Positions 24,733 to 43,600 of a DNA stretch of 64,000 nt are shown one piece after another. The stretch lies in the NCBI GenBank assembly GCA_000002435.2, contig CM018793.1, one strand, 5' to 3'. Source of the DNA: Giardia intestinalis (lineage: Eukaryota). Each line of letters opens with the position of its first letter. The first letter of the stretch is position 1. The translations under genes were made by a program, and so were the position numbers. The notes under the pieces were generated by a model. The model was not told the origin of the DNA. It did not search any database and worked only from the letters and a program-made list of their open reading frames with translations.

Positions 24733-24804
24733 TGTGCGTGCTTGAACCTCTGACCTTCTTTTTCTGTGGCTCGATTTTTAAATTAAAACCTGCCAGATTT
24801 TGCA

Positions 24805-26007
24805 ATGAGCCAGACCCTCTATCGTCAATCCCATTGGAATGGTGAGAGGTGGGTTCACGTGCATATATATACTAATGGCCGGGAAAAAAGACTCACACTT
24901 TACGGCCTGGACACTGTAATTAACACATCGACATTTCTGGCGATTTGTTCGCTTCAAAACAGCTCCTATATGTATGACTATGGCACGGATACACTTTACG
25001 AGTGTAGTGTTTATGACCCTCTCACATCTGACGAAAGTCTTTCTTCTCAGCTGCATGCTGTTCGCTTGACTAAGGTCCTCCTATTACGACAGCTACGCCT
25101 CAAGGTATTTAGCGACAGACACACATTGTCTACACCTCCCTGTTCACCTGGTGCTATGCGGAAGCCACAAACTCCTCTTCTTAAGCTTATGCGCAACATA
25201 GACACACTTCAGCCTTACGATCATCTCGCATCCAGGCTACAACCACGCAGTCTCACAGCCACACCGGTTGTTTCAGCGGCCATCTGCGCTATCAGCCAAG
25301 ACACCCTTATGATCTTTTGCGTTCAACGAGGATTTGCTTGTGGTAACAGCACGCCCATCTACACTAACCATCTCCTCAAAGTGAGCCTTTCTGGCAACGA
25401 CTCTGAAAGGCTGAAGCTTCAATCGCAATTTGAGCGTGTGCATAGCTTGATTTACTATAACGGTAGCCTATTTACGATAGTAGAGCAGAGTGTTGCCCTA
25501 CCCAAGACAGAGGAAGATTTGGAAGAAGAAAAGCGGCGGGATGAAGAGCTTGCAAAATTGATGAGGCGGCTTTCCAAGATGGATCCGGAAGACGAGGAAT
25601 ATAAAAGATTGGAGCCATATTACCGATCATCTGTTGAGCCATTCGAGACAATCTATGCTCTATGTCGAATAGATATAAACACCTTCTCTGTGGAGATCCT
25701 TATGAAGAAAAGGAGCTTTATGAAGGCCTTTGCAGGCGACTCGGAAGATACTGTCACGGTCGTTATGCCAACATACGACCTATCCTCTACTATAACTGTG
25801 GCATCCTATAATACCGTATCAAGGGAGCTTACTCTGTCTCATCCCGCATTGGATCCTTGGTTTGTAATTGACAGGACGCTACTAGAGTCATCCTACTTAC
25901 AGAAGAGTATTCTTCGGAACCCAGCCCTTTCCCTAGAACTAGAGTTATCCTCAGCTAAAGTGTGTGTGCGCCCAACAGATTTGACCACTGAGCACGCAAC
26001 TCAATGA
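24805..26007 (+). CDS. Hypothetical protein (400 aa)
   Basis: Long ORF with balanced composition and a 72-bp AT-rich divergent spacer shared with the upstream gene. Confidence 0.5.
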   Translation: MSQTLYRQSHWNGERWVHVHIYTNGREKRLTLYGLDTVINTSTFLAICSLQNSSYMYDYGTDTLYECSVYDPLTSDESLSSQLHAVRLTKVLLLRQLRLKVFSDRHTLSTPPCSPGAMRKPQTPLLKLMRNIDTLQPYDHLASRLQPRSLTATPVVSAAICAISQDTLMIFCVQRGFACGNSTPIYTNHLLKVSLSGNDSERLKLQSQFERVHSLIYYNGSLFTIVEQSVALPKTEEDLEEEKRRDEELAKLMRRLSKMDPEDEEYKRLEPYYRSSVEPFETIYALCRIDINTFSVEILMKKRSFMKAFAGDSEDTVTVVMPTYDLSSTITVASYNTVSRELTLSHPALDPWFVIDRTLLESSYLQKSILRNPALSLELELSSAKVCVRPTDLTTEHATQ

Positions 26008-26050
26008 CTCGTTGTTGTTTCTCTTCTGATTTCCATGGCTCGCAACCCCA

Positions 26051-26809
26051 TCAGCAAAAGGTGGCAAGGTGCACCAAGAGCTCCGTCTTCTTGTCATCAT
26101 CTATGCCCAATTTATTGTTGAGCAGCATTGCTCTCACATCTTCTCCGTGGATTGATGCTTCGTATTGTGCTACCGCATGGAAAGACGGAACATGTCCGAC
26201 TCTCGCTGCTATATGAAGAGCCGATTGACCATCTGCATCTACCATTCCTCTCTCCTTATCCCAAAGGCAATCGATACACGAGTAGTTCGAGTGCTCCACT
26301 GCGTACATTAAGGCGGTCTTCCCATTTCTATCTTGCAGTCCACCCTCTTTGTCAACTAATAGTGTGACACAGTTCACAGCCCCCACGATTGCAGCTATCA
26401 TTAGGGCAGTAAGAAAGCACCGTGTCTCCCTCAATCTACTTTCATACTCTGCTAGAAGCTCTACAGCAGCTGTCGCGTTGTTTGCCGCAGCTATCATTAA
26501 AGCTGTTACATTAGCTAAGACGTAGCCAGAGATAATAACGGGGCATCTCATCTTCATCTGCCTTTCGTCGATGATCAGCACCTTTATCACATCCGGCCAG
26601 TTGCCCGCAGCGGCATACATCAGCGCAGTGCAGCCCATCATGTCGAACTGCTGAACATACCCTCGTCTATTACGGGCCTCTCTCACATCTCCTTTAATAG
26701 CTGCGTGCATTAAGGGCGTACGACCGCCATACCCACGGCCGTGATCTGTAAAGGCCGACCTGAGCTCATCCAATCGATACACATGCCCAATTGTAAACAT
26801 ACCAATCAC
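26051..26809 (-). CDS. Ankyrin-repeat protein (protein 21.1-like, short form)
   Basis: Five or six ankyrin units: GRTPLMHAAIKGD, GCTALMYAAAGNW, TALMIAAANNA, TALMIAAIVGA, GKTALMYAVEHSN, GQSALHIAARVGH. Confidence 0.75.
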   Translation of the reverse strand: MIGMFTIGHVYRLDELRSAFTDHGRGYGGRTPLMHAAIKGDVREARNRRGYVQQFDMMGCTALMYAAAGNWPDVIKVLIIDERQMKMRCPVIISGYVLANVTALMIAAANNATAAVELLAEYESRLRETRCFLTALMIAAIVGAVNCVTLLVDKEGGLQDRNGKTALMYAVEHSNYSCIDCLWDKERGMVDADGQSALHIAARVGHVPSFHAVAQYEASIHGEDVRAMLLNNKLGIDDDKKTELLVHLATFC

Positions 26810-27184
26810 GATTTAGATAGATGAATATTTGATAAATGAAAGGTTCGGCTTTACAGGCGTTTAAAGGTTTTATAGGTATGTTGCTATCACACACGGAGGT
26901 CTATTGCTGCAGTGTGGGGCTACCGGGACGGCAAGGCATGCAGCTAGGATTTGAGCTTAGCAGCAGAAGAGGATTGACTTTGTGTATAAGGGCATTCTTC
27001 ATCCACCAACTGTCTGGTCTTCTTAGAACTGGTTTCTGTGGGGAAAGTCCAGCCTGCAATGTCTCATTTCTGTAGAAAGAGTATTTACTAGTTCAATCCA
27101 CAAGATAGTGTAGAAAATGTTTTGTAGCACGATAAAAATAAAAGAGATAAACAATCTGCTTCTCAATCCTCACAAGAACGCAGA

Positions 27185-28894
27185 TCACCCGCCCATTAGA
27201 ATATTGTTTATCTCTGAAACCAACTGCAGACACTTCTTCTTTGGCTCGTCGTAGCAGCTCTCAATGGTTTTTTGCACAATGAAGAGCTCTACCGCATACT
27301 TCTTCTGTAGGTTCGCTGAGAGCTGGTCCAATAGATTTCTTAGCAACTGCGCATTCTCGTTTGCTGCAATTTGATCTTCTATGAGCCGCAGCGCACCCTT
27401 GCTCTTTTCGAGGGTTTTCGTTTCTTCCTCATGCATGGCTTTTAAACTAGTAAGCTTCGTCTTAAGGGTGCTTTCCTCTGCCTCGACATTTTCAATTGAC
27501 TCTGCATCGCGTAGGTCTGCTCTAAGGCGTTCAAGGGAGTCAGTTAAAGCTGAAACCTTGTCACCATAGGTCCGCAATTCAGCGTTGACCCGCATCTCCG
27601 TATCAGTTGTACGGTCAAGCTCGCGCGACTTTTGCTGTAGTTGTGCCTCAATTGCACCAGGGTTCTCCTCTCCAGGCACTGAGACGGTACCCTGAGGAAT
27701 GGGCAAGCGGGAAATAAGATTGACAACTTCTGCCTGAGCTTGCTTAATACTCGTTTGAAGGGCCAGCTTTTTGTTGGGAAATTCAACGAGAAACGCTTCT
27801 GCTTTGATGACGGACTTCAACAGATCCTTCTGCTCCTTGGTGATGGTCACAGTTGCGTCAGGGGTGATCTCTTCCAAAAGCTTCTTGCGTTGTTGAACGC
27901 CGCTTTCTGTTATCTTGATCTCTTCTACTAAGCTCTGCGTCTCCATTTGCTCTACACGAAAGCGATTCCTAAGCTGCTGCTTAAGTGATTGCTCCGGATC
28001 ATGACTTTCCGCAGCCTTAATTTTTGCCTTGTATGCATCAAGCTCTCGTTTTGCCGCTCTGATCTGTCTATGGAGCGTAATAGCCTTTTGGATGTTTGTA
28101 TCCACTCCGCTTATGCGTTCGTCCATTGCTATGTGACCCGGTTGTCCAGAAATAGAACCACCCGAGGTGTAGTTGGAAAGGATAGTGCAGAAACTGTATG
28201 CATTCGCCGCCACTGCTGCTGCCTCCTGAAGCTCCTTGCGTAGTTCGCTTTCCTTTTGCTTCAGTGTTATATTCTCGTCATTTAGAGACCTATATCGTTC
28301 TGCAGCTTGTAAACCGAGCGTTGATTCTATTTGAGCCTCCATTTCCGTGCGCAGATGCACCGCAGACGCCTCGTTCTTGCGAAGACGCTCCTCGGCATCG
28401 ACCCTGGCCTTGTAGGCTATGTTCGCCTCGTTTCTAGTTTTCGACGCGGCCGACTCTGCTTCTGTTGCCTCTGCACGAAGATCCTCGAGCGTTGCATTCT
28501 CACTGAGTCTGCTCTGGGAGTAAAGAATGTCTTGAAGCTCTCCCTGAAGCTCGTCAACCTCACGTTGGATAGCATGAAGAGATTCCTGCTGGCGTTGGAG
28601 CTGGCCTTCACGCTTCTGTAACTCTATGGTCTGCTTTGAAAGCGCTTCTGCCTCCTTGTTTGTGGCTGTGATCAAATTGCGGAGCTCACTGGTATAATAT
28701 CCCAAGTCCAGGACTTGCCGCTGGCCGCCAACGGCCCGGGTTCCTGGCATGCCCATGTTTGTTATAGGTCTGGCGGTGAGAGCTACTTGCGTCATAGCAG
28801 CCGTACCTCCAACTGCTTGTTGAACCGAACCCCGCGTAACAGTACGGGCGGTCATAGCCGGGTGCATTGCTGTCCCAGTAGCAAGTCTGTTCAT
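27185..28894 (-). CDS. Coiled-coil protein (569 aa), hypothetical cytoskeletal
   Basis: About 450 aa of heptad-compatible E/K/Q/L-rich sequence following a Gly/Thr/Ala-rich N-terminal region. Confidence 0.6.
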   Translation of the reverse strand: MNRLATGTAMHPAMTARTVTRGSVQQAVGGTAAMTQVALTARPITNMGMPGTRAVGGQRQVLDLGYYTSELRNLITATNKEAEALSKQTIELQKREGQLQRQQESLHAIQREVDELQGELQDILYSQSRLSENATLEDLRAEATEAESAASKTRNEANIAYKARVDAEERLRKNEASAVHLRTEMEAQIESTLGLQAAERYRSLNDENITLKQKESELRKELQEAAAVAANAYSFCTILSNYTSGGSISGQPGHIAMDERISGVDTNIQKAITLHRQIRAAKRELDAYKAKIKAAESHDPEQSLKQQLRNRFRVEQMETQSLVEEIKITESGVQQRKKLLEEITPDATVTITKEQKDLLKSVIKAEAFLVEFPNKKLALQTSIKQAQAEVVNLISRLPIPQGTVSVPGEENPGAIEAQLQQKSRELDRTTDTEMRVNAELRTYGDKVSALTDSLERLRADLRDAESIENVEAEESTLKTKLTSLKAMHEEETKTLEKSKGALRLIEDQIAANENAQLLRNLLDQLSANLQKKYAVELFIVQKTIESCYDEPKKKCLQLVSEINNILMGG

Positions 28895-28925
28895 TTAATA
28901 AAATTTGGCCACCCTGTGATCACGA
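28895..28925. promoter_or_regulatory. 31-bp AT-rich bidirectional promoter spacer between divergent coiled-coil and J-domain genes
   Basis: TTAATAAAATTTGG core between start codons at 28894 (minus) and 28926 (plus). Matches the minimal AT-rich initiator architecture of Giardia. Confidence 0.45.
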
Positions 28926-29969
28926 ATGGGAACCAAATCCAAAAAGATACAGAACACAGAGACAGTCGTAGAGCAGCGTGGTAGTACACAGCAGAAAAAG
29001 ACGGAGGCTAACCTTATTGGTGGCCCGTCAACCTCCAAGCAAGAGCCACACAATAAACCAAAGAGGATGCAGGAGATACCTGTCCAACAGTTTCGCGGCC
29101 TGGACCCTCTCTATGACTCTTATGTGCGCAACCCATCTGGGGAACAAGTTGTTGAGCCCGAGGACTCATCCGATTTAGAAATGTCCACAGAGGGATACCT
29201 CGTGCAGATTCCCTTTGCGCCAGGATCTGAGCCCTGTACTGGTCCCAATGACCCAAATTATCGGAAGCTGAAGCAGAAGGATGTAACTCTAGGGGACCTA
29301 CAGACCCCGAGAAGGCACCCTATAATTATATTTGACTCTCCAAACGATTTACTGGACTTTCTACATCGATTTAATCGCTTCCACATCCCCGAAGACAATC
29401 TCAATCTTCTGCTAAAGGAGATTGAATTTGTCGTAGAAAGAGGCGGCGATTGCAGGTTGATGCCCGATGGCAGGTTTGTGATGTACACCCGTGAGATAGA
29501 GGAGATGATTTCTAAGCGGAGAGATATGGCGGGTAAAATTTCTACAGAGCATATACAGCTGAGAAAGCTCTGCTTCTACTTTTTTGCTCTACTCCTATTG
29601 TCAGCGATTGTCATAGGCGGCCTTGCCTTCATCATGAACTTCCTGTTTCCGTCGCTCTTTAAATTCGGGTCATCTAGCTCCGAATCGCTCTCCCCAGAGG
29701 AAAAGATGCGCGAGAGCTACAAAGCTCTGGACCTAGCCCCTGATTCCTCTGTAGAGGAGATTAAGAAACAGTACAAGAAGCTTGCCGTTAAGTGGCATCC
29801 AGATAGGAATCCCAATTGTGTGGATTGTGAAGCCAAGTTTATGGTCATTGCCGATGCATACAAAGCATTACTCGATATTCTAGCTGGTGGAGATGGAGAG
29901 CCAACCCAGCAGCGCGAGGGATCCGACCCTGATAGAGAATTTGTTGTTCGGCCGATGCGCTATAGGTGA
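28926..29969 (+). CDS. J-domain (DnaJ) membrane protein
   Basis: C-terminal J-domain YKALDLAPDSSVEEIKKQYKKLAVKWHPDRNP (HPD motif). A TM segment LCFYFFALLLLSAIVIGGLAFIMNFLF lies upstream. Confidence 0.7.
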   Translation: MGTKSKKIQNTETVVEQRGSTQQKKTEANLIGGPSTSKQEPHNKPKRMQEIPVQQFRGLDPLYDSYVRNPSGEQVVEPEDSSDLEMSTEGYLVQIPFAPGSEPCTGPNDPNYRKLKQKDVTLGDLQTPRRHPIIIFDSPNDLLDFLHRFNRFHIPEDNLNLLLKEIEFVVERGGDCRLMPDGRFVMYTREIEEMISKRRDMAGKISTEHIQLRKLCFYFFALLLLSAIVIGGLAFIMNFLFPSLFKFGSSSSESLSPEEKMRESYKALDLAPDSSVEEIKKQYKKLAVKWHPDRNPNCVDCEAKFMVIADAYKALLDILAGGDGEPTQQREGSDPDREFVVRPMRYR

Positions 29970-30003
29970 ATGTAGGACCACACGACTGACTGAATTAAGC
30001 AGG

Positions 30004-33000
30004 TTACAAGTACTTCAAGAAGTTAACTAAGTCACTACGGTCCAATCCCTCGCACTCATGAACCTGTTTAATTGTAAATGATGTTCCAGTACTAGTGGGG
30101 AGGGGGGACCCTATGGATGTGTGTAAATTGCTATGGTTACTCGGAGTTAACTGCCTGAATTGGTCCATGTTTCGTGCATCATCTATCGGTTTGGGTTGAT
30201 CTGATGACCTTACCTGGGTGTCGCGACGAAAGGTTCTAGAGGCAGCACGGGAGCTAGGCCTGGATGATGTGTTACTAGTAGAGACGAAAGAATCTGCCTT
30301 TTGGAAGGCTGGAGATGCCACAATACTAGGTCTGGAAGCTTCTGGAACCACAGGGCCATAGGTGATCTCGAATTCTAGAAGCTCCATGGACGCTTGAGCA
30401 AGAATCTCAGTCAGCGGTAAGTCAAATTGATCCTCGATATAAGAAAGACGCTTTTGAGACGCTTCGATGAACTTCGCTGGGCATGCGTTGAGGGCTGCGC
30501 TTGCAAGATCTTCTGGGTGTTGGGCCTGTTGCTTGTTTAACCTTGAGCGGCTTCTGCTTCGGGGCTCAGAGTGAGATTCCGAAGAGTGAACATTACCGAC
30601 ATTGAGCAGACGTAAGAAGGTAGGATAAGAAGACCGCTCTTCTTGTAAGATAGCCAGCCGAAGAACCGAGTGCTCCAGCACAAGACCTAGAACACTCGAC
30701 AGGGGCTTTTTAAACGAGTGACCAGAATTCGAGCCAAGGACTTGTCTCGAAACTGGTTCTAGATAGTTGCTAGTGTATCTATAGCAAGGATAGAGGTATT
30801 GTGGTATTGTATCAGGCTCCTTTACCCATGCCGGCTGATAAGGAAAGCTACCCAAGTCTTCTAAGTAGCTGCTGGCGTGCTTCCAAAGATTCTCAGGTAT
30901 ACCTGGGTATCGTACCTTTGAAGAACTATAAGAGTTGCCCATAAACTCTTCATAGATTTCTAGCAAAGGAATCCAAAGCGTAGGAGCAGCAGAGAATGCT
31001 TGAGAAATAACTTTGTACATGCAGGCCTGAACCCTGGCGAGATAGTTCCCGATCTTGTGGGTGAATGCTCCTGCGTCTACTTCGGCAATATACGCATCCA
31101 TTGATCCAGTGAATTGCTGAAAGGAAGGACGTGTTAGGAGCTTTATCTGGCGGGGCCAATCTCTTACAGAGGACCTGTGATATATGTAATAATCACGTAG
31201 ACAAGGGTAGGCACTGCTCATGTATGTAACGTGGTTGCTCAGTGGATGGAGACAAGCAGAATTGTCCAGTCTGCCGGCAGAAAGTATGCAGGGGTTGAAG
31301 GCATGAAGATTATTCTTTAATAGTACATCAGATATCTGCATGCCTGTCTCGTCCATCTGAGCAAACGATTGAAGATAGGAAAATTGGATATCAAGTAGGT
31401 TACATACAGGCTGTATGCACCTATAAAATTGCCGAATTGATCGTAAGCTCAGAAGGTTCTTTCGCATCAACTTGCGGTAGTAGCAAGCAGCAAATGCAGA
31501 GCAAGTTAGCTCCTTAGATAGCCAGTCGTAATCGCTTGAAGCAAACATGTGCACGGCACACAGGTATAAGACCGAAAAGAGTGCAAGAGGACTTTCAGAC
31601 TCTAGTTTAGTGTTCGCCTCGTTACAAACAAGTAACAATTTAGATGAGCTAAGGATACCCAGACACTTCTCAATAAGCTGCGACTGTGTAGAGTTACAAG
31701 TGGTTTCCTTTCCACGGAAGTTGGCAGGAACAGAGAAGGTTGGCCCCAAAATGTCAGACATTACGTTGGACAGGAGATAGCCTTGCATGAAACATGTACC
31801 ACAAGTAAAGACCAAAGTAGAAAGGAAATAGAAGAACGAATATATCTGTACGGATAGCAGTGCATGCAAGAGAAGCTGGTTCGTTCGCAAACCTAAGGAG
31901 CTAGTAAAGTTGCTCTCTGAGGGATGCTCCACTTCGTAGGCAGGGTCACCTGGTATCAGAAGTTTCATCTTCTGAAGCTCGTTGTGAAGATACTTTGCTT
32001 GTTCTTCTGATACGAGATAAGATAGAATTGCTGAATAATCAACCTCTACTGCAAGAAGCTGGCAAAGATAGGTGTCATAGAGGTATATTGTTTGAAATCG
32101 TTTCCGAACCTCTGCACACCCGTTTGCCCACAGCTTCTCCAACTGAACTTCTTGGTCACAAAGATTAATGGCAAGGAACGCACAGTCGCAAATGTATATG
32201 CCCTGATCTGCTGTAGGGAGCTGTACAAATCGCTTCGACGAGCAATCAAGCAGTGTCCCAGATCTGTGTAGGTTCAATTCCTTGAGAATAGTAATATATG
32301 CCACTTTCTCCGTCGTTACTGGAATCAAGTGAGTTAATTCGGAAAAAAGTCCTGTAATGGTACAACCATCTGAAGCTTCAGTGTCCCAACTTGTGAGTTG
32401 AGATAAAGTTAGACATGAGGACAAATCAGGATTATTGGTTGAATGTGTGTTCTCACAAGAATGAGTACTATGTTCTATCGATACAGTGCCAGCGTCATAG
32501 GACAAGACCCGTGACTTTGCTTTAAAGATAGACTTGGGAATAAAGCGCTCTGTGGTATGACGGAGTAATTGTCTGGACTGATAGATAAGGGCATCAGATG
32601 AGGAGCATGAGATCACTGGGGGATCATCGTTTGAGTTGGAGTTAGCACAGATAATGTCAAACAAAGACGACTGGACCGGATATGCGCGGTCAGAGCCGGT
32701 GTTGCTATCTACTTCATCGGTACCCGTGCAGGTAGGTGTAGGAATTCGATGCACGGCTCCAGAGCGGAACAATGTCGCCATGTCAATACTCAGAAGCGTG
32801 TCTGTGCCCATGAATACCGTGGTGAAGCCTCCCACTTGAGTACATGAAACTAGCGTTGTCTTGGCCACACCTGCTACAGGGTCAGGGACTACCCAAATGA
32901 CTAGGTTAGACGTGAAAAATAACTGAGTAGAGCACACCGAAAAGAAAGAATGACGGTAAGTGTTTCGAACCGCAACTTTAAACGTGAGAGAGTCGAGGAG

Positions 33001-34530
33001 AACAGAGGAGTTTAGCTCGCTAGGTGAAAGACCATGCAAGATGTGACTAGAAATAGCAGCTGCAAACAGGCGGAAGTTAGTGGTGTCGACACGCTTCGTG
33101 ACACCAGCTTCTAGCTTGTCCTCGTCGCGCCCTGTCATCTTGAGTCCTTCCATATTCGTGTCTATCCGTGCACTTGTGTGATATATTGCTTCCGTAAATG
33201 GTGAAACAAGAGTAAGCATAGCTGTCATTGATGCCCCGCTATCTGCTGCAATGTCTGTGGGCACAGTTGAAGAAAGAAAGTACTCAAATGCAATAATTGG
33301 AAGTGCTGATGAAATGCTACCGAACGAGACAGCTATTGTGCATGGAATCAATGCACTAAATGCTTCTGCCACAATGAGGGGATAGTCTGGGAATGGTCCC
33401 ACGCAAAGGGATGTGATATGTCTTAAACTGTGTGTAGATGGGCCAGGAACTTGTGGGACAGAAAGATTACTTGGCTGGGAAGTGCTTAGACCAGAATGCC
33501 GACTAACTGCCTTGCGAAAGTCTTTATAAATGGACACCGTCAGGTTTGCTGTTCCAATGCTGGCCATTTGAGAGGCAATCCGTTGCCTCGTTATAACAAC
33601 CAAGTCCCCGGTTGTGGGAAGAAACTGCCTAAAGGCCACAGGCTCTCGCATGTGTGAAGCCAGCGTGCCTAGGTGCTTGGCCTCGTGCCAGATAATGAAT
33701 GACTTCACCTGATCAGTAAAGGATTTATTGAAGCGAATATTTATTTGCTCGATTGTCGTCCGAGATACTGTCGTGTCTGTTGGCCTGTGATAAATACAGT
33801 TAGTGAAGGGCAGAGTATATTCATCTAAAATGGCTCCTGATACATAAGATATCAAAAAGTATGAAAGTGAACTCTTCTCCATGGTAATGCTGATGTTATC
33901 AATTTGAAGGACAGAAGAGTGGTACGGAGTTGGGACATCAGAGACAAGATCTGGACTGTGCTTCTGTTCACCAGACAAAAAGTACCCTATCACGGGGTCT
34001 GGGGCATTGGACACCAAACGGTGCATCCCATACATGCCCATGATTGGCTCAACATCACAACCTGCCACAAAAGACGGCCACGAGCCACCATCTTGATAGC
34101 TTTGTGACGCAAGAGAGACTAGTATAGTGTCATGCAAGCGACGGGAGCGCTTGATTGGTTGATTGGTAAAGGGAGAGACAATAGACACAAACGTCATCAA
34201 TAAGAAGGCCCCGGAACCAGGCGAAAGAGCACAGTGATAGACGATGGCAGCCGCCGATATTTTAAAGATGGGAATAGAGCTTTGAATTGCATCGTTTGTG
34301 GAATCTGAAATGGATTGCAGGTAGATCTCTGAAAGAACAGACGAAGGCCCACTGAGTGTCTCCAGAACAACCAGCATCCTTCCATCTGGTGCCTGTCCGA
34401 CAAGGCGGCAGGAAGAGGCCGACTTGGAACGAGTTGGAGACGGCAAACACCAATTGGCGCCACCGGTCTCTATATGCTTTATGGCTTCATTGTGAACAAA
34501 TCTTTTCAATGTGCTGCGTTTCAACAGCAT
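30004..34530 (-). CDS. Very large hypothetical protein (1508 aa)
   Basis: Uninterrupted 4.5-kb ORF with no recognisable motif. Its start lies 54 bp from the divergent HCMP at 34584. Confidence 0.6.
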   Translation of the reverse strand: MLLKRSTLKRFVHNEAIKHIETGGANWCLPSPTRSKSASSCRLVGQAPDGRMLVVLETLSGPSSVLSEIYLQSISDSTNDAIQSSIPIFKISAAAIVYHCALSPGSGAFLLMTFVSIVSPFTNQPIKRSRRLHDTILVSLASQSYQDGGSWPSFVAGCDVEPIMGMYGMHRLVSNAPDPVIGYFLSGEQKHSPDLVSDVPTPYHSSVLQIDNISITMEKSSLSYFLISYVSGAILDEYTLPFTNCIYHRPTDTTVSRTTIEQINIRFNKSFTDQVKSFIIWHEAKHLGTLASHMREPVAFRQFLPTTGDLVVITRQRIASQMASIGTANLTVSIYKDFRKAVSRHSGLSTSQPSNLSVPQVPGPSTHSLRHITSLCVGPFPDYPLIVAEAFSALIPCTIAVSFGSISSALPIIAFEYFLSSTVPTDIAADSGASMTAMLTLVSPFTEAIYHTSARIDTNMEGLKMTGRDEDKLEAGVTKRVDTTNFRLFAAAISSHILHGLSPSELNSSVLLDSLTFKVAVRNTYRHSFFSVCSTQLFFTSNLVIWVVPDPVAGVAKTTLVSCTQVGGFTTVFMGTDTLLSIDMATLFRSGAVHRIPTPTCTGTDEVDSNTGSDRAYPVQSSLFDIICANSNSNDDPPVISCSSSDALIYQSRQLLRHTTERFIPKSIFKAKSRVLSYDAGTVSIEHSTHSCENTHSTNNPDLSSCLTLSQLTSWDTEASDGCTITGLFSELTHLIPVTTEKVAYITILKELNLHRSGTLLDCSSKRFVQLPTADQGIYICDCAFLAINLCDQEVQLEKLWANGCAEVRKRFQTIYLYDTYLCQLLAVEVDYSAILSYLVSEEQAKYLHNELQKMKLLIPGDPAYEVEHPSESNFTSSLGLRTNQLLLHALLSVQIYSFFYFLSTLVFTCGTCFMQGYLLSNVMSDILGPTFSVPANFRGKETTCNSTQSQLIEKCLGILSSSKLLLVCNEANTKLESESPLALFSVLYLCAVHMFASSDYDWLSKELTCSAFAACYYRKLMRKNLLSLRSIRQFYRCIQPVCNLLDIQFSYLQSFAQMDETGMQISDVLLKNNLHAFNPCILSAGRLDNSACLHPLSNHVTYMSSAYPCLRDYYIYHRSSVRDWPRQIKLLTRPSFQQFTGSMDAYIAEVDAGAFTHKIGNYLARVQACMYKVISQAFSAAPTLWIPLLEIYEEFMGNSYSSSKVRYPGIPENLWKHASSYLEDLGSFPYQPAWVKEPDTIPQYLYPCYRYTSNYLEPVSRQVLGSNSGHSFKKPLSSVLGLVLEHSVLRLAILQEERSSYPTFLRLLNVGNVHSSESHSEPRSRSRSRLNKQQAQHPEDLASAALNACPAKFIEASQKRLSYIEDQFDLPLTEILAQASMELLEFEITYGPVVPEASRPSIVASPAFQKADSFVSTSNTSSRPSSRAASRTFRRDTQVRSSDQPKPIDDARNMDQFRQLTPSNHSNLHTSIGSPLPTSTGTSFTIKQVHECEGLDRSDLVNFLKYL

Positions 34531-34583
34531 CGTGTGCAGCTGGACGACCCCGCGCCGTATCCGGAAGGGCTAGTTTTAAAATT

Positions 34584-36377
34584 ATGTGGCTAGTCTGGCT
34601 CGGACAGCTCATAAGTCTCAGTTATTCTTTTTGTCCCCTGCGCAATTGCATAAAGTGTCCAGTCACTGATGCTGATAAGCTTTGCGAAGTTTGTAAGCTT
34701 GGATATTATCTCGATTCCACAGATAACGTTTGCTTGCCTTGCTCCACGACCGTAACACACTGTAGCAGGTGTAGCGCTGACGGCAAAAGCTGCTATTCAT
34801 GTGCTGATGGTCGTGTACTGAAAACAGTTTCTACAGGGCAGTCGACCACACAGGAATGTTTCCTTAGTCAGGAACAGCTCTGTAGTGCAGTGTCCAACTG
34901 TGGTCTTTGCACCGTCACTGATAGCACTACTACTTGTGATGCATGTCTGCCAGGATACTTCCTGCAAAGCTCTTCAAATGCTTGTGTGAAATGCGCTGAG
35001 AATTGCGTCTATTGTTCAGCAGAGTCCACCTGCACATCTTGTAAGGATAACTATACACTTTCATCACCGCTGCCTTCTACCTGCACTGCATGCACTCTTC
35101 AGAACTGTGACCTGTGCTATGATGGTTCTATTTGTGACACTTGCTCTAGTGGATTCCACCACAACGATGCTGGAACTTGTGTGCAGAATACTAACTGTGA
35201 TGATGTTGGATGTAAGGAATGCAACGGTGGACATGCTCCGTGTACGAAGTGCTACAAAGGATATTACCTTACAGGTCAGACCTGCACTCTATGCAGCGTC
35301 GACATCTCCAACTGTATCCTCTGCGATTCTCCATCTGCAGGAGCCTCTTCCCGTGCTACTCTGTCATGCACTCGGTGCCAACAGGGTTATCACTTGAGGG
35401 ATAATGCCTGTGAGTCCTGCTCAGATATAACTAATCACTGCCAGAGCTGCCCTAGTGGAATTTGTACGTCCTGTGAGCCAGGGTACCAGTTGATGAACTA
35501 CCCGCGCTACTGCAAAGAGAAAACAACAACAGATTGCTCAAATCTCAGCAACTGCCTGGCTTGCACGTCTGATTCTCGATGCATTAGCTGTGCGCCTGGG
35601 TACTCACCAACAAATGGTGTTTGTGAGCTTTACACTGGCTGCGCCGTTGCCAACTGCGGGATCTGCAGGAGCGATCAATACACCTGTGACTTCTGCGTTC
35701 GTGGATACAGACTAGAGAATAACCAGTGTATATCGAAGTGTACAGATAGAAACTGTCATACCTGTAGCCCTGGGGCAGACGGACAGGAGGTCTGCAAACA
35801 GTGCATGCCTGGATACATCCTTGATACAGACAGTAGCGTGTGCACCTCATGCGGCGTTGAAAAGTGCGTTTCGTGTTCTGTATCAACAGAAGCAAAGAAG
35901 GCGTCAACTAGCCATGCCTATAGGAGCTTCTCTAGGTGGTTACAGCAGTTCCAATCCAAGAGAGCTGCAACCGCTCCATCTAACCGGATAGAGGATTGGG
36001 AACATAAGTTGAAAGCAATAGCACAGTATTATAGACTCACTGATATCCAATTGAATAACCTGCGGGTTGTTCTCTATGATTACTTTACAAATGGATCCAT
36101 TTCTATGCATTTATTCAACGACTCCGACCTTATTTTGAAAGAAATATCTAAGGTATATACCAGCGGCAAACAAGGAGTAACGGAGGCCAGCCTATCTAGT
36201 GCCAAGCTGTTTGTCTGCTCAAAGTGTGAAGACGGGTATACCCTAACGCACAATACCTGTGTGAAGCAAACCCTGACTGCAAGTAATATTGTGGGCATAA
36301 GTGCCGGTGTCATTTTAGCAGTCGGGATAATTGCTGGGGCAATAGTCATGACAGTAACTTCAAAGAAGCACAAGTAG
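34584..36377 (+). CDS. High-cysteine membrane protein (HCMP) with a cysteine-free insert before the TM
   Basis: Signal-like MWLVWLGQLISLSYS. About 20 CXXC modules. A roughly 110-aa Cys-free segment (aa ~505-615 of the track ORF) precedes a final CSKCEDGYTLTHNTC module and TM IVGISAGVILAVGIIAGAIVMTV. The track ORF begins at 34356, inside the neighbouring gene. Met 34584 is preferred. Confidence 0.75.
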   Translation: MWLVWLGQLISLSYSFCPLRNCIKCPVTDADKLCEVCKLGYYLDSTDNVCLPCSTTVTHCSRCSADGKSCYSCADGRVLKTVSTGQSTTQECFLSQEQLCSAVSNCGLCTVTDSTTTCDACLPGYFLQSSSNACVKCAENCVYCSAESTCTSCKDNYTLSSPLPSTCTACTLQNCDLCYDGSICDTCSSGFHHNDAGTCVQNTNCDDVGCKECNGGHAPCTKCYKGYYLTGQTCTLCSVDISNCILCDSPSAGASSRATLSCTRCQQGYHLRDNACESCSDITNHCQSCPSGICTSCEPGYQLMNYPRYCKEKTTTDCSNLSNCLACTSDSRCISCAPGYSPTNGVCELYTGCAVANCGICRSDQYTCDFCVRGYRLENNQCISKCTDRNCHTCSPGADGQEVCKQCMPGYILDTDSSVCTSCGVEKCVSCSVSTEAKKASTSHAYRSFSRWLQQFQSKRAATAPSNRIEDWEHKLKAIAQYYRLTDIQLNNLRVVLYDYFTNGSISMHLFNDSDLILKEISKVYTSGKQGVTEASLSSAKLFVCSKCEDGYTLTHNTCVKQTLTASNIVGISAGVILAVGIIAGAIVMTVTSKKHK

Positions 36378-36499
36378 GTGGATGGTTGCACTCTACTCTC
36401 TAGCCCCTGTGCGTCTGATTTTTGTGGGTATAGGGCTCATGAATATGTGAATGTATAAGTTTGTACTAAATGTTCACTGAGTAACCATGCAAAGTTCTA

Positions 36500-37135
36500 A
36501 TGCAAAACCTGACTATAAGCGATCTGAACTCCTCCTCAGTAGCAGCCAGAACGTCCATTATCACTAAGAGAAGGGACAATGATGTAGGAACTTCAGGCTC
36601 AAGGTCTCGACAGAATCCACGAAAGAGCACAAATGTGCCCCTATACAATTCCAAGTCGTACATACGGCGAACACATCCTGATGACCCCGCAGAAAATAGC
36701 ATCCTGGCTGATCTATCCTATATACCTGAGCCTCTTAGCGTCTCCGCGGGCCCAACAGTCGCGTCAAAGGGCTCCATTTTTTCATCTACCGGTGTGACGT
36801 CAATTCGCTTTGACACGGCTGCAGAGCGGTCACGGACAGACGAGGAGCTACAGGACTTGGTACAAAGGCTTCAAACCGAAGTTCGAGATCTTAAGAAAGC
36901 GCATGCAGATTGCGACAAAGAGCTTGAGGACCTCACGCAGCAGATGCAACAGATTAGAGAGGTCATGGTCAGATCAAATGAGAGCATGGTGCGTGCGTTG
37001 GACAGCTCGTGCTTTGTTGTCTTGCCATGCCGTCATTATGTAATGGTTGATAAAAAGATTTCAACGCTCACTAACTCTAAGTGTCCAAAGTGCAATATCC
37101 ACGTCACAGAATCATATTTAGTAAAGCATAAGTGA
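36500..37135 (+). CDS. Hypothetical coiled-coil protein with C-terminal RING-like Cys/His cluster
   Basis: Heptad segment LQDLVQRLQTEVRDLKKAHADCDKELEDLTQQMQQIREVM. C-terminal CFVVLPCRHYV...CPKCN resembles the second half of a RING/zinc-ribbon. Confidence 0.4.
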   Translation: MQNLTISDLNSSSVAARTSIITKRRDNDVGTSGSRSRQNPRKSTNVPLYNSKSYIRRTHPDDPAENSILADLSYIPEPLSVSAGPTVASKGSIFSSTGVTSIRFDTAAERSRTDEELQDLVQRLQTEVRDLKKAHADCDKELEDLTQQMQQIREVMVRSNESMVRALDSSCFVVLPCRHYVMVDKKISTLTNSKCPKCNIHVTESYLVKHK

Positions 37136-37671
37136 CTGCTCTTTTTGAAGTGCTGCTAGGTATTGACACAGGATTTACTTTCTTCAAGTAAACACACGGT
37201 TTGAAGGATAGCAGATAGTAGGAAAAATAGATCACAAAGGTAAATCTAGATATACAATCAATCCATTAATCGTAGCATAATGTAACAATAAGCTTTTCAG
37301 ACAATAGGCGGAGTGACTCCTACGCTTATCAAGGGGCTGGAGAAGTGGTACATATTAACTCTCCAGTTGCGTCATGCTCGACCTACCAAGAGCTGACTGA
37401 CTAATTCATAGTCTTCCAAAGTTTCTATGCCTACTCTGTCGGCTTCTCAGGTACCAGAACAACTGCAGATGATATTGCTCTAAAGGATGCCATTTATGGG
37501 AGCTATCAGGACCAAAGGAACCTTAGGTGATGAGGCCGAGGGGCGCGTCTATATTCCTGGTGAGTGATGATGACTAGAACGTGCACAGATAATGCGTGTA
37601 TCTTCACGTTATAAGATAGTTTGTTAGCATCATCTGAATAAGAGCTTTTGAAGCAGGAACAAGCTCACATA

Positions 37672-40600
37672 TTAAGAGCCGTGGTTTTTGAGAATTGCAA
37701 TCTCATCCACGAGAGTGCGCAGCTCCCTCTCACGATTTATGATCTCCTGCTTCAGACTGTTGTACTCCTGCCGTACAAGCTCCTGTTTGTTATCGCTGCA
37801 CCATGCCTTGGGAGCCTTTCGTTGCCTATCAAGAATCGCCCTGTCAAGTTCTAAACTTTCTCTTTCTAATCTTGCTAGCTCAAGCACCAGCTCTGTGTTC
37901 TTGTCAAGAGCATATTTCAGCTGATCGCGGCCACGCTCCAGAATCGTCTCTTTGTAGAGCTGATCTTGCTTGAACTCTAATTCTTCCTGATTCAGAATTC
38001 TGGTAAGCTCTTCTGCTTGTTCGTTTATGCACGCGCTGTCTAACTTGGCTATGTCAATCAGCTGGCCGAATTTGAGCATCTGGACCGCTTCAAGCTTTTC
38101 ACTATAGATTTTGTAGTCTTTTTGTGCTTGCTTTTCCTTCTGCAGCAGCTCGTAGTGCGTGTCTTTGAGAGACTCTCCAATCTGTGCAAAGTGTCGCAGC
38201 TGCTTCTTCCTGAGATCTATTCTAGCTTTGAGGTTCTGTATTTCCTTTGCGTCAAAGAGAAGAGCGTTACTAAGATCTTCAATAATAGTATCATCCTCGC
38301 TCATGTATGCATACTGGCCCATAGTAACGAGTGCCGCCGTCTGCACGCTGTTCAGCTCCTTCTGTTTGCCAGCGCGGAACTGTGTTAGCTCTCTGTTTGC
38401 TGCATCCGTGGCAGAGACTGCTGCCTTTTCCCTTTTCTGAAGGACTAAATACTGCTGCTTCAGTTGATCTGCCTCTTGGTGGATAGCTGCCAACTGTGCG
38501 TCATAGTCTCGCTTCTTTGATCGCAAATTGAGAACGAAATTAAAGAGCTCGTTGCTAACGCCCTCCGGGGCAACTGTTTCATCTACAGGCTCATCATCAT
38601 CCTCGACCCCTCCCTCAGAAAGATTAGAAAGCTCCGACGACTCATCCGATTCGTCCATATAATCGTCTGGGTTTGTTGACCCGAGAGCCTTCTTGGTCGC
38701 TCCGCCTCCGACTAGCGTTGCCTCGAGGCCAGCTGGCTCGGCGTCTGCCTGCGGCTTGATAGGCTTGGGGGCCCTGTACTTTTTGTTATAGATTTTGATC
38801 AACTTCGTTCTGAATGGAGCATCAGTGCTAATAGAATTGTTGAATTCACGAAGAAGCTTTTGGAGGTTAGTCCCGACGGCCATCGCCTCCTCAGTCTTTT
38901 GGGAGATCTGCTTCCGGAGATGCTCCAATTGTATGGTTATTTGTCGGTGCTCATTTTTGCAGTTCTCGAGGTGTTCCATGGATTTAGCATCCCTAGTAAT
39001 ATAGAGATGATGGATTTCTGTTTGCTGGAACAGGCTTATGATGCGAATGCGCATACGAGCAAAGTCCATTTTTAGTTGAACGCTTGAGTACTGAAGCTCT
39101 CGAACAGCATTATCAAACGCAGTTGCCAAGGATAGCATCTTATTCAGGATTTGGCTTCTACAATACAGAGCAAGCGAAATCCAGTAGTGAGCTTTCTGAG
39201 CGTAGTCCTGACTAACCTGCATCTTGCTGAACACAGAGATGGCCTTGGTGGAGTCATAACTTTGCGTCCCCTGGAAGACATTCATTTGCAGGTTGTTATG
39301 CTGAGCCAGAGTCGAGGTGATATCGTATGTATCGTGTCTGTTATATAGAGATGGCGCATGCTGAGCGTTTTGTGCCGCTAACGCTGCAGTGGGGCGAACA
39401 CAAGTAGCTTCTTGAATTTGATATCCAGAATAAAGGAGTACGTCTTTGGCTAGAGGATGCTTTTTAGCTCTTGCACCATGTGGTACACTCCCAACCGGGA
39501 AGTGCTGTGCGTTAGCGTTAGTATCAGGGTCTTTTAAGTCATTGATTGCGAGGATAGAGGAAGACTTGTTGACAGAAGAGTCGAGCCCCTGAACGCCCAT
39601 GAATATGGCTGTGTTAATATAGGGTCGACACATATTAACCAGCTCGTCCTCATCCTCATTCTCTTCATCCTCGTTAACCTTGTCAGACTCACTGCTTGAC
39701 TCGTCATTTGAGTCGTTAGCGTCATTACTTAAGGGGTAGTTCAGTTTCGGAAGCGTACCATATCTAAGCCCACCCAAGGCCTCGCTGGATGATAAAACAA
39801 TTTCCTGCACGGCACTTTGGATACCAGTTGGCGGAACATCCAGAAGCTTCTGTAGTCGATCAGCTTCGTCGCTAGAAATAATCTTATTAGAGACACAAAA
39901 CTCCAGATATTGTAGCGCTAGCGGATCACTACCAGCAGGATCACTTTCGTTGAAGAACTCCCCTGGGGCGTGAGAATAACACGACTGTAGCTGAAGACAG
40001 AGAGTCGTATTGTCAATCTGGTCTAGTGGTGTGTCTGCCAGCTTGCTGGAAGCCCAGTTACGAATATATCTATCGTGCACCTCCATGCGTCGAATGTGTG
40101 CTATTTCATCAGGATGAATGGATATCATGCTCAAAAGCTTGTCAGGGTCGGCGCTAAACTCGTACTTGGCCAGTCTTGCGTCTATGTCTGCCGCTATTAG
40201 GTGGCCGGCCATGTGCTTTATTGAAGCAGTGATTCGAAGAGCCTCTTTCTTAAGCGTGTTGACGCATTCGACCACAGCCTGCTTGCAGGCAAACAGAACG
40301 GCCACACGTTCGTTAAAATCTTTTTGCGCGTCATGAAGACCCTTTATAGCTAGCAGGAACTGTAGCCAGCGACCCTCTTTATTTTCATAGACGTTCACGG
40401 GAGGCACATTCTTACCTGCTCCGGTCGCGTCTTCGTGTTGCTGCGCTAATTGTCCAACCTTGAAGACATAGTCCTCCGTAGTTTTAAGTGGGAATTGCCC
40501 GAATGTTTCGAGGCTGAAATCATATGCTTTTTCGTCCTCTGGGGAAATCTTACTGGGATCGGGCTTCTCGGCTAAAAGGGCGCGGAGCTCCTCTTTTCGC

Positions 40601-43600
40601 TTCTGCCGTGCTTCTACCCGCTGCAAAACTCGTTGCTGCTTTATTTGGGCGTCAGAAATGGTGTCCTCAAGCTCATCTTGCTTGATTGTTGCCTCACCCA
40701 ACTTATTTGAAAGGGTCTGTGCAATGATCTTGTCAATAGCTTTAATGGTCCGGGTGCCCGCCACTGAACCAAGCCTACTACCACCCGTGGTCCTCGACGA
40801 TCTTAAGGGAGCAAGAGCGCTCTTAGTCGCACTAGTGTTAGACTCTGCTAAAGACTTTTTGGTGGTGCTCAAGGAAGTGAGGGTCACTGCACCCAGCCTA
40901 CTAACTGACGTTTGGTTGAGAGACCCGCGCTGATCATTATCTATGATGGAGTGGTCACTGACATCACTAGTTTCCATAGTATCATTAGGATTCATTATGT
41001 TAGCGTCAGCCCTCATAGTAGATGTTGTAGTTAAGTTGTTTGCAACCTCTGAATCACTACGATGGTCATAAGCAATCTGGTCTAGCTCATCAAGAGATTC
41101 TATGCCCAGAGCCTCACAAAGTGCGCTTTCGAACTTCTCACTAAACGGATACAACTTGAATGTGGTAACTTGAAAGGCAGGATTTGCAAAGGCACGTACG
41201 GTGTAGGTAAACTCCGTCACAGGAAAATTGGCGAGGACGCTCTGAATCTTCGCAGTAACACCCCGAAGAATATCTCCTAGTTCGTCATATATAATTGTAT
41301 GGGCCCTGCGCTCTTCTCTGCCAACCCAATCATGAGCTAATAGTAGATCTGGTGAGATCTCATGTGGATAGAGACGTTTCTCTAAAGGTAGTGACGCATT
41401 CTCCTTGACCAAGGTGTCATAGAGGGCTCTGAGACCTTGTATTTTTAATAGAACAGCATGCTTTCCATCCTGCCCAAGCTTATTTGCCGCTGAATCCAGT
41501 TCTGACAGCCTGGCCTGCTCTAGGGTCAAAAATTTGCTCGCTCCTTCTACCTCGGTCTGCTCTTCTGCAGTGGTATAGTCATGGACAACGGCCTGCTGAT
41601 CTAAATCATCGCCCTCAAGGGGGATAGTGTCTGGCTGCTGTTTTAAGATGTCTGCCCCCTTTTCTTTGAAAACAGCCTTTGAAATTAGGGAGAAGACCTT
41701 TTCATGGAAAACAAGAGAGACAGACGGCTTGAACCCTTTAATCCCAGTGGAGTAAATATTATCTCGCACATAGCGCGTACAAAGGCCGTTATCAAAGGTC
41801 TGTATGTTATTTGCTGATAAGTATGCTGCTTGGAGTCTAGCTAAGAGAACCTTCACTTCATGAGTTCCATACACGAGTATGTTTCCAGATCTGTCTCCGA
41901 TGACGCAGACATGCCCGCCAAATCCCACGTTCATGTAGCATAGGCCGTTAGCTGGAACTGCCTGAGCACAGTACGCAGTCCACCACTCAGACTTCTGCTC
42001 TAAAAGCTGCATGGCAACGAGGGGATTTAGGTTTGACGCTTCTCCTTTTAAAACATTCTGAGTGAGCGATGCAAATTCGTCTTCAGTTCTGTATGGTTCG
42101 ATGGTCACAGAGCCACCAGCCTGGATAGTAAAGAGAGTACCAAAAACCTTTCCGGCCGGACCAGAGCGTTCGGCAGACAGCAGCTCCTTATTCAGTGCGT
42201 CCTCCATGACACAGTCCCTGAGGGGCTGAAGCATAGCAGGAAATGACATGATAGGGGTTCGCATCAACAGGCTAATAGACTTATTATTCTGAGGTTCAAA
42301 CTCCACATCATCCAGCTCTGCCTCCTTGAGAGCAGGCGCATCCATGAGGGGTCCCCGATGAGCCGCCGGGGAGATTACTTCTGGCCGTATAAAGATCTTC
42401 TTTGATGACTCTTTGCTTGACTCTTCTCTGTTGTCATCTGCTGCCGGCGTAAGCCCCGAATTCATGAGGAGGCTCCGTGACCCGATGGAATTGGCATTAA
42501 TAAGCGAGAAAAAGGATTTCTTGATGACTGCATAATCAAATAGGTATATTAAGCTGCTCCTATATGCTGCACGAGCTTCGGCAACGGCTAAGGCAGCACA
42601 GAAGAGAGCGGGGTCTCCTGCAGCGATGTTGGATGCAGTGGCGCCACTTGCCTCAGCACGGGCTCGAACGCTCGCCATCGCCGAGTCAGCCCTATTCCGG
42701 ATTTCCTCATCAATAAAAATCTTGACAAGGATGGCTAGCTTTCCAGGCGTAGCTATATCTGACACATCACTGATATGAGTCTGTCCAGCAAGGTCTTTGG
42801 ATCTAACAAGCCCTGTCCCGTTAACAAGGCTGAACTGAACAAAGTCAAATTTCTGGGGCTGATTCATGTCTTCATAAAGAGGGTCATTGGGGTTGAGCTT
42901 CTTCTTCTTTTTTCCCTCTATCTTGTTCCCATCCTCATCGTATTCTTCTTCAGACTCTGTCGACTCCTCCTCTTGTTTTTCTTCCGTTATTTCCATGGCC
43001 AGTAGGGCGTCCATTGCCGACTCCATGGCCCCACGACTAGGGAGCATCGCGCTGATTTTCCGCTGCACGACTGCCTGCTCTACTTTGGCGATCGTCCCTT
43101 CACAGGTCCCCGGTAGGGGGGTTACGGGGATTGCTATTGACAAGAAGTACGGAACAGAATTAAACATATGCATTAAATTATATGACACTGAAGATGGTTC
43201 TCCTGGTAAGTTAGGTTCTGTGCTCGGAGCTGATAAATTCATGGTGGTGGAAGATAGGCTGTCTGTCATACTAGATCCTGATTTGAGCCTGTACTGTATT
43301 AGATCATTTGCTGGCGGAAGGGTGATCGCCACAAGCCTGTCTTCTGGAGAGGTGCAGTTCAGTACGGCCATGGCCAATACATTGGGTTCTAGGTAGAAGA
43401 GATGGCCTAGCCGCTGTGAGAGTTTATCGGGCGACTCTTTAAAGATAGCGTAGTATACATCAAACTCTCCAAGTGGTAGAATGTCCTTCCCAGTCATTCC
43501 AAAGATACCATTAGAAGCCATTACTGCCAATTCAAATGCCTTCTTTTGCGACTCATCCTCCGCAGCATCACGCACGTTAAGAAGGCCCTTTGCGAGGGAT

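Follow-up and report, generated by a model that had tools for sequence, protein, structure and literature searches.

A conserved cysteine-free module nested in the membrane-proximal repeat unit of a Giardia high-cysteine membrane protein

GL50803_16721 is a high-cysteine membrane protein (HCMP) of Giardia intestinalis, encoded at 34584..36377 on the plus strand of a 64,000-nucleotide stretch of contig CM018793.1 (assembly GCA_000002435.2), which was analysed here and is called the window below. The open reading frame (ORF) translates into 597 residues with 72 Cys, and close to the membrane it contains a stretch of 113 residues (35877..36215) without a single Cys. We find that this stretch truly belongs to the protein, is translated and is maintained by selection, and that it is very probably a real and conserved orphan module, nested inside the last unit of the Cys-rich repeat. 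The gene itself is known and annotated, while the Cys-free module is an undescribed feature of it.

The stretch separates C431 from C545, and the resulting Cys-to-Cys distance of 114 is the largest in the protein, the second-largest being 19. When the 72 Cys were placed at random in the ectodomain, none of 100,000 placements gave a gap of at least 114. In the two other Cys-rich membrane proteins of the window, the largest ectodomain gap is 19 (9416..11440) and 22 (20130..22187). A first-pass annotation of this DNA had described a Cys-free insert of roughly 110 residues at this location, and the present analysis bears this out. The end that it gave (36215) is exact and the peptide that it quoted is correct, but the start that it gave (35890) is out of frame and 13 nt too far downstream. 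Both remaining sense frames over the insert were found to be full of stops, which means that the insert is not a frameshifted Cys-rich segment.

The insert was originally placed between the CXXC array and a separate last Cys module. However, the repeat structure locates it differently. Residues 17–420 (34632..35843) form eleven six-Cys units, for which the AlphaFold2 model has β hairpins only, and which follow the pattern C1-x(3-6)-C2-xx-C3-x(4-14)-C4-xx-C5-xx-G[YF]-x-L-x(n)-C6. In a MAFFT alignment of the 44 ordinary units from four lineages (eleven per lineage), each unit contributes to six aligned Cys columns and to a GY-x-L motif. Six Cys at fixed positions, with a G-[YF]-x-L hairpin after C5, are the marks of an EGF-like/furin-like repeat. 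The loop between C3 and C4 is the sole element that varies strongly in length, from 4 to 14 residues in the eleven ordinary units. A twelfth unit, which was parsed manually, fits the same pattern when the insert is removed. Its N-terminal half (residues 421–431, TSCGVEKCVSC, 35844..35876) supplies C1–C3 as C423, C428 and C431, and its C-terminal half (residues 545–559, CSKCEDGYTLTHNTC, 36216..36260; identity 80–93%) supplies C4–C6 as C545, C548 and C559, in the C4-xx-C5-xx-GY-x-L-...-C6 arrangement of units 1–11. Since C1–C3 precede the insert and C4–C6 follow it, the insert lies inside unit 12, in the tolerant C3–C4 loop, and not between modules. The proposal, also made in the first-pass annotation, of a domain insertion into an HCMP scaffold is supported. 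A fusion, which had been suggested as well, is unsupported, as the Cys repeat carries on normally on either side and there is no donor gene.

Another suggestion was that of an assembly join, and in the same category one can consider a chimeric contig or a sequencing artefact. The only observation that points in this direction is the abrupt change in composition, the GC content being 0.35–0.42 in the insert and 0.49 in the Cys array. At third codon positions, however, the two regions are nearly alike (0.41–0.45 vs. 0.47). The lower GC content of the insert thus follows from its amino-acid composition, and there is no sign of foreign DNA. The orthologues speak directly against an artefact. A search of 5.8 billion protein clusters returned three orthologue clusters, namely P0001 (99% identity), with the WB reference protein and further isolates of assemblage A among its members, P0002 (70% identity), which includes EET00319.1 from isolate GS of assemblage B, and P0003 (64% identity), which comes from run ERR3333378 and is labelled lineage X here. 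Full-length variants of these three lineages were drawn from independent Logan, ENA and NCBI assemblies, and in 23 of the 23 distinct ones (nine A, thirteen B and one X) the insert is present in frame with zero Cys. The orthologue contigs carry the same neighbours, a 1508-aa gene upstream on the opposite strand and a 211–227-aa gene downstream. With the insert at a syntenic locus in independent assemblies of four diverged lineages, conserved synteny on either side and a core under purifying selection, the assembly join is refuted, and an artefact of any of these kinds is extremely improbable.

The fourth of these lineages is assemblage E, represented by isolate P15 (ACVC01000223.1), where no gene is called between the same neighbours. 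The orthologue was found there unannotated on the minus strand (L004 2212..4082), split by a 1-nt shift near 2700 into ORFs of 481 and 170 aa. The split occurs at an A5 run precisely where the insert begins, and adding one A to this run restores a protein of 597 aa with 72 Cys, in which the insert is present and free of Cys. As the P15 genome is reportedly a 454 assembly, the frameshift is probably a homopolymer error, although it may represent a real pseudogene in that isolate.

Conservation is unevenly distributed along the insert. At its N-terminal end there is a poorly conserved S/T/K-rich linker (residues 432–445, 35877..35918), with an identity of 21–50% between lineages. It is followed by an amphipathic helix (residues 446–460), a dibasic [KR][KR]-A motif (459–461) and a connector (461–466), together at 35919..35981. 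Next comes the core (residues 467–525, NRIEDW...KEISKVY, 35982..36158), and the insert ends with a second, variable linker (residues 526–544, 36159..36215), whose identity is 15–63% and which has a 6-aa deletion in lineage X. In the core, the identity between lineages is 73–83% and the proportion of nonsynonymous differences (pN) is 0.13–0.16, while synonymous sites are saturated between lineages (pS 0.65–0.92). For the non-Cys positions of the Cys array the identity is 59–68% in the A/B/X pairs. From R468 to Y525, 36 columns are invariant across the four lineages, and the polymorphisms seen within assemblages are conservative (N/S, I/V, I/T and L/V). The core also contains eight aromatic residues and an invariant sequon, N512-D-S514. 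The helix region 446–460 has an identity of 20–60%, and its hydrophobic i, i+3, i+4, i+7 pattern (F/L449, W452, L/M/V453, F/L456) is kept in all four lineages, as is the dibasic motif. The helical hydrophobic moment reaches 0.87 in the 11-residue windows at 444–447. The constrained part of the insert thus comprises ca 75 residues, the amphipathic helix and the core, between two linkers. Of the stretch that the earlier description took for a folded module rather than a linker, only these residues (446–460 and 467–525) look constrained, and 432–445 and 526–544 are linker-like.

In principle, the conservation could also be due to a gene on the other strand. At 36080..36391 on the minus strand, lineages A, B and X all retain, in the same frame, a stop-free run of 92–98 codons across the 3′ end of the gene, and an equivalent ORF is open in E (P15). 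This frame spans the transmembrane (TM) helix and the last half-unit and reaches into the insert, of which it takes in the C-terminal part. Reshuffling of synonymous codons reaches its length with P=0.13, 0.02 and 0.09 (one value per lineage), values that apply to a frame and a region picked after inspection of the data. However, an overlapping antisense gene would cover only sense residues ca 499 to 597, whereas the conserved core begins at 467. The poorly conserved linker 526–544 lies within the frame, which indicates that the frame is probably a by-product of the sense sequence, and the ratio of nonsynonymous to synonymous substitution rates on the sense strand is well below 1. An antisense origin of the conservation is accordingly very hard to credit.

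As regards relatives of the insert, the searches gave consistently negative results. Pfam has nothing at E≤1 for the insert, and for the whole protein only a sub-threshold VSP match. The best match in a profile search against the PDB has E=0.059, with none below 0.05. When 1.84 billion representative proteins were searched with a profile, only the protein's own cluster, a fragment thereof and two spurious Bacteroidota repeat proteins came back, and in a scan of metagenome contigs none of the 122 pattern matches was confirmed. With tblastn and blastn against the window only the insert itself was recovered, with no paralogous DNA or peptide. There is thus no sequence or fold match above noise, in Pfam, the PDB or the other collections, that would identify the insert as a known domain. 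A search for distant orthologues with a four-lineage profile found only members of the Giardia duodenalis complex, and the same holds for a search with the neighbouring 1508-aa gene, in which no G. muris anchor was found. Judged by its sequence, the insert is an orphan, with no detectable relative beyond the orthologues of GL50803_16721 in the G. duodenalis complex. As it has no free-standing relatives, it is not a shuffled known domain, and it was either born in place or has diverged beyond recognition.

Two specific relationships were considered and rejected. The first links the insert, by homology or by acquisition, to the Ig-like repeats of giant adhesins of the type IX secretion system of Bacteroidota. 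Namely, in the profile search of 1.84 billion proteins, which was exhaustive, the whole-sequence E-values are 1.7e-15 for P0022 and 3.7e-5 for P0024, and there is a 23-residue resemblance between IQVNETGVVFYDAATGGNI and LQLNNLRVVLYDYFTGGSI. However, these scores are sums over 12–18 near-identical repeats. The best single repeat has 7.5 bits with an independent E-value of 3.8e5, and only positions 54–84 of the 113 in the insert align with the repeats. The relationship, which has virtually no chance of being real, is an artefact of adding up many repeats with per-domain scores at noise. The other option is that the core is a degenerate EF-hand-like Ca2+-binding helix-loop-helix (LRVVLYDYFTNGSISMHLF). 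By eye, the stretch between two predicted helices places D499, N503, G504 and I506 at positions 1, 5, 6 and 8 of an EF loop. Such a loop has 12 residues, with oxygen ligands at positions 1, 3, 5 and 12 and Gly at position 6. In the putative loop DYFTNGSISMHL, however, position 3 is F and position 12 is L, neither of which can ligate Ca2+, and B and X have G at position 5. An hhalign comparison with calmodulin gives a probability of 0.1%, Pfam reports no EF-hand at E≤1, and the lone EF-hand protein in the PDB search has E=2.3 and matches a different segment. We reject this reading, which is most unlikely, on the basis of the wrong ligand positions 3 and 12 and the hhalign result.

Concerning the origin, it could also be argued that the insert is a relic of about three ordinary units stripped of all their Cys, which would be compatible with any present function. 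The 113 residues correspond roughly to three units of 33–43 residues, and the motifs AYRS (445), YYRL (482) and VYTS (524), 36–42 residues apart, recall the GY-x-L of the units. However, under a hidden Markov model built from the 44 units the insert does not outscore shuffled inserts. With the lineage A insert, the score was equalled or exceeded by 102 of 500 shuffles, and the E, B and X inserts are not reported at all. Such a relic would in addition have to have switched from β hairpins to helices in the predicted structure, and neither the 23 full-length variants nor the repaired P15 sequence retain a single Cys there. This origin is therefore improbable.

The structure was predicted with AlphaFold2 both for the insert alone (alignment of three sequences) and for the full protein (four sequences). 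The first-pass annotation had surmised an α/β fold. The two calculations gave the same four helices, 443–460, 469–483, 487–501 and 514–526, while the rest of the ectodomain was predicted as β hairpins. The first linker has a pLDDT below 50 and no regular structure. Of the four helices, the first and the last show strong helical amphipathicity. In the segment RVVLYDYF-TNGS-ISMHLF the β moment exceeds the α moment and there is an NG/GG turn, such that a β hairpin may form here. The confidence of the models is low, with mean pLDDT values of 51.7 and 55.1. For the insert the pLDDT is 31–49 in the full-length model and at most ca 70–71 when modelled alone, and these values weigh against an independently folded domain. 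It should be pointed out, however, that the alignments are shallow, and the low values do therefore not show disorder.

On balance, and with some reserve, we favor the reading of the insert as an orphan domain that is restricted to this lineage and nested in a loop closed by a disulfide, and probably as a juxtamembrane interaction module. Taken on its own, the claim that it acts as an interaction module is tentative. The insert is accommodated in the C3–C4 loop of the twelfth, membrane-proximal EGF/furin-like unit, the chain passing from a flexible S/T/K-rich linker through the amphipathic helix and the aromatic-rich core to a variable linker that leads back to C4. Assuming an EGF-type pairing of the Cys (1–3, 2–4, 5–6), we infer a C428–C545 disulfide bond, which would act as a staple between the two ends of the insert. 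The TM helix begins 10 residues past C559. The insert may accordingly be envisaged as a small, independently folding and mostly helical domain beside the rigid Cys-rich stalk, a few nanometres above the membrane. As its role, a specific contact surface seems most plausible, one that would serve in lateral self-association or bind a partner protein or ligand, and the two variable linkers would give this module reach. A further step, which is more speculative still, is to view it as a young domain that arose in the G. duodenalis lineage within the length-tolerant loop, and that has become an indispensable, independently folding interaction module at the trophozoite surface, mediating self-association or receptor/ligand binding.

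The main rival to this reading is that the insert is for the most part a flexible juxtamembrane stalk with a processing site, the sole protease-accessible spot in an otherwise disulfide-locked ectodomain. Cleavage, for example at the dibasic K459-R460, would then lead to a two-chain form or to release of the ectodomain. This scenario accounts for the linkers 432–445 and 526–544, which are variable, S/T/K-rich and predicted to be unstructured, and for the dibasic motif that is retained amid a variable segment. In lineages A, B and X, residues 432–466 carry a net charge of +5 to +7, and processing or release has been reported for HCMPs and HCNCp in two earlier papers (PMC1762436; PMC7461913). 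On the other hand, a cleavage site leaves the core unexplained, that is, 59 consecutive residues at 73–83% identity with eight conserved aromatics. Moreover, mass spectrometry identified GL50803_16721 in the insoluble trophozoite fraction (PMC5070761), and it was not found in the supplementary data of two secretome studies. Note also that cleavage would not release the ectodomain if the loop is indeed stapled by a disulfide. We thus consider a stalk with a processing site unlikely as an account of the insert.

Apart from the nested module, GL50803_16721 has the properties expected of its family. An exact-sequence cluster look-up identifies the protein as XP_001707593.2 of Giardia lamblia ATCC 50803 (P0026). 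It has 30 CXXC motifs and a Cys content of 12.06%, and the same figures are given for ORF 16721 by Davids et al. (2006; PMC1762436), in whose original HCMP list it appears, and in Table S1 of bioRxiv 10.1101/2022.03.07.483299. The signal peptide (residues 1–16, MWLVWLGQLISLSYSF, 34584..34631), which is conserved in all lineages, is listed in this Table S1 as MWLVWLGQLISLSYS. The TM helix (residues 569–591, IVGISAGVILAVGIIAGAIVMTV; helix 569–595 in the AlphaFold2 model) is followed by a six-residue cytoplasmic tail, TSKKHK (together 36288..36374), both being listed in the two sources, and the signal peptide, TM and tail strings match one row of Table S1. GL50803_16721 is thus a type I membrane protein. 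The Cys content, motif number and length all lie above the limits used by Davids et al. for HCMPs (at least 10% Cys, at least 20 CXXC/CXC motifs and at least 400 aa), and the topology, that is, a signal peptide, one C-terminal TM helix and a tail other than CRGKA, is that of the HCMPs, later renamed CRMPs. An assignment as a VSP fails, since the tail is not CRGKA and the PF03302 score of 22.9 bits is below the curated cut-off of 31.4.

As to the start of the gene, an in-frame upstream ATG (34509..34583) gives a 622-aa version of the protein, which corresponds to XP_001707593.1 and to many Logan gene calls. This version runs into the start of the divergent neighbour (30004..34530, minus strand), with which it shares 22 nt, and the upstream ATG is missing from the assemblage B gene calls, which begin MWLIW. 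These two observations support 34584 as the true start, with an intergenic region of 53 bp. In terms of expression, the gene ranges from ca 207 down to ca 26 fragments per kilobase per million, which is comparatively high for an HCMP, and it is not induced by contact with host cells (fold change 0.8; supplement of Peirasmaki et al. 2020, PMC7461913). The only main-text mention of the gene identifier that we found in the literature is in a proteomics paper.

The gene is part of a conserved housekeeping block (22210..45744, also seen at the loci L001, L003, L004 and L005), which contains a radial-spoke protein, an ankyrin protein, DnaJ, the 1508-aa protein and a 2690-aa coiled-coil protein. Assemblages A, B and E all have the same gene order in the block, as does a further lineage (SRR17450160). 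This setting contrasts with the variable VSP/HCMP regions described in the literature. GL50803_16721 is a single-copy gene with one-to-one orthologues in the four lineages.

Two variations in the Cys complement were also observed. In all 13 assemblage B variants (P0002, P0035–P0048), the codon of C170 (35091..35093), which is C1 of unit 5, encodes Ser instead, while the Cys is retained in lineages A, E and X. The resulting Cys count of assemblage B is odd (71), which presumably leaves one Cys unpaired. In two assemblage B variants, P0040 and P0044, R257C introduces an extra Cys into the longest ordinary C3–C4 loop (unit 7, 14 aa). Regarding the other Cys-rich type I membrane proteins of the window, both on the plus strand, the TM and tail strings of the one at 9416..11440 match ORF 16716, an HCMP of Group 5 (Davids et al. 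2006; Table S1 of the bioRxiv paper), and in the Davids table (PMC1762436) ORF 21321 has the identical TM helix and tail. The one at 20130..22187 is rich in CxC and EGF-like motifs.

The HCMPs constitute a large family of Giardia surface proteins, with 94–116 genes. To our knowledge, essentially no molecular function has been assigned to the family and no structure has been solved. The nested module is the one non-repetitive, strongly constrained feature of the GL50803_16721 ectodomain, which makes it an obvious handle for deletion, tagging, antibody and pull-down experiments. It is also a possible non-variant surface epitope, and it would offer a clear-cut example of an orphan domain that became fixed within a disulfide repeat. 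If it indeed is an interaction module, GL50803_16721 would be a constitutive, non-variant HCMP with a function distinct from that of the rest of the family. The impact is confined to Giardia biology unless a partner or a fold is found.

Finally, the protein can be compared with known systems. With the Group 2 HCMPs (CRMPs) it shares the signal peptide, 12% Cys, 30 CXXC motifs, the single C-terminal TM helix and the short non-CRGKA tail. Published accounts portray HCMP ectodomains as uninterrupted arrays of CXXC/CXC that contain furin-like, EGF-like or VSP motifs (PMC1762436; Rodriguez-Walker et al. 2022, bioRxiv 10.1101/2022.03.07.483299), and in the searchable HCMP literature we found no mention of a Cys-free module in this or any other HCMP. 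GL50803_16721 is also unusual for the family in being single-copy with one-to-one orthologues in four lineages, in its housekeeping synteny block, and in being expressed without host stimulus rather than induced by host contact. Compared with nested domains in general, the arrangement is the familiar one, in that the parent unit continues on both sides, linkers are found at the junctions and the most length-tolerant loop is used. The insert differs from them in lacking free-standing relatives.

A further parallel is provided by the dimerisation arm in domain II of EGFR/ErbB, which is a loop excursion from a furin-like disulfide module that forms a β hairpin of ca 20 residues. The insert of GL50803_16721 is much larger (113 residues), is predicted to be mostly helical and has its own linkers, and there is no sequence or fold relationship between the two. 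The likeness would instead be one of design logic, namely a rigid rod of small disulfide modules in which one loop is extended as a protruding contact element.

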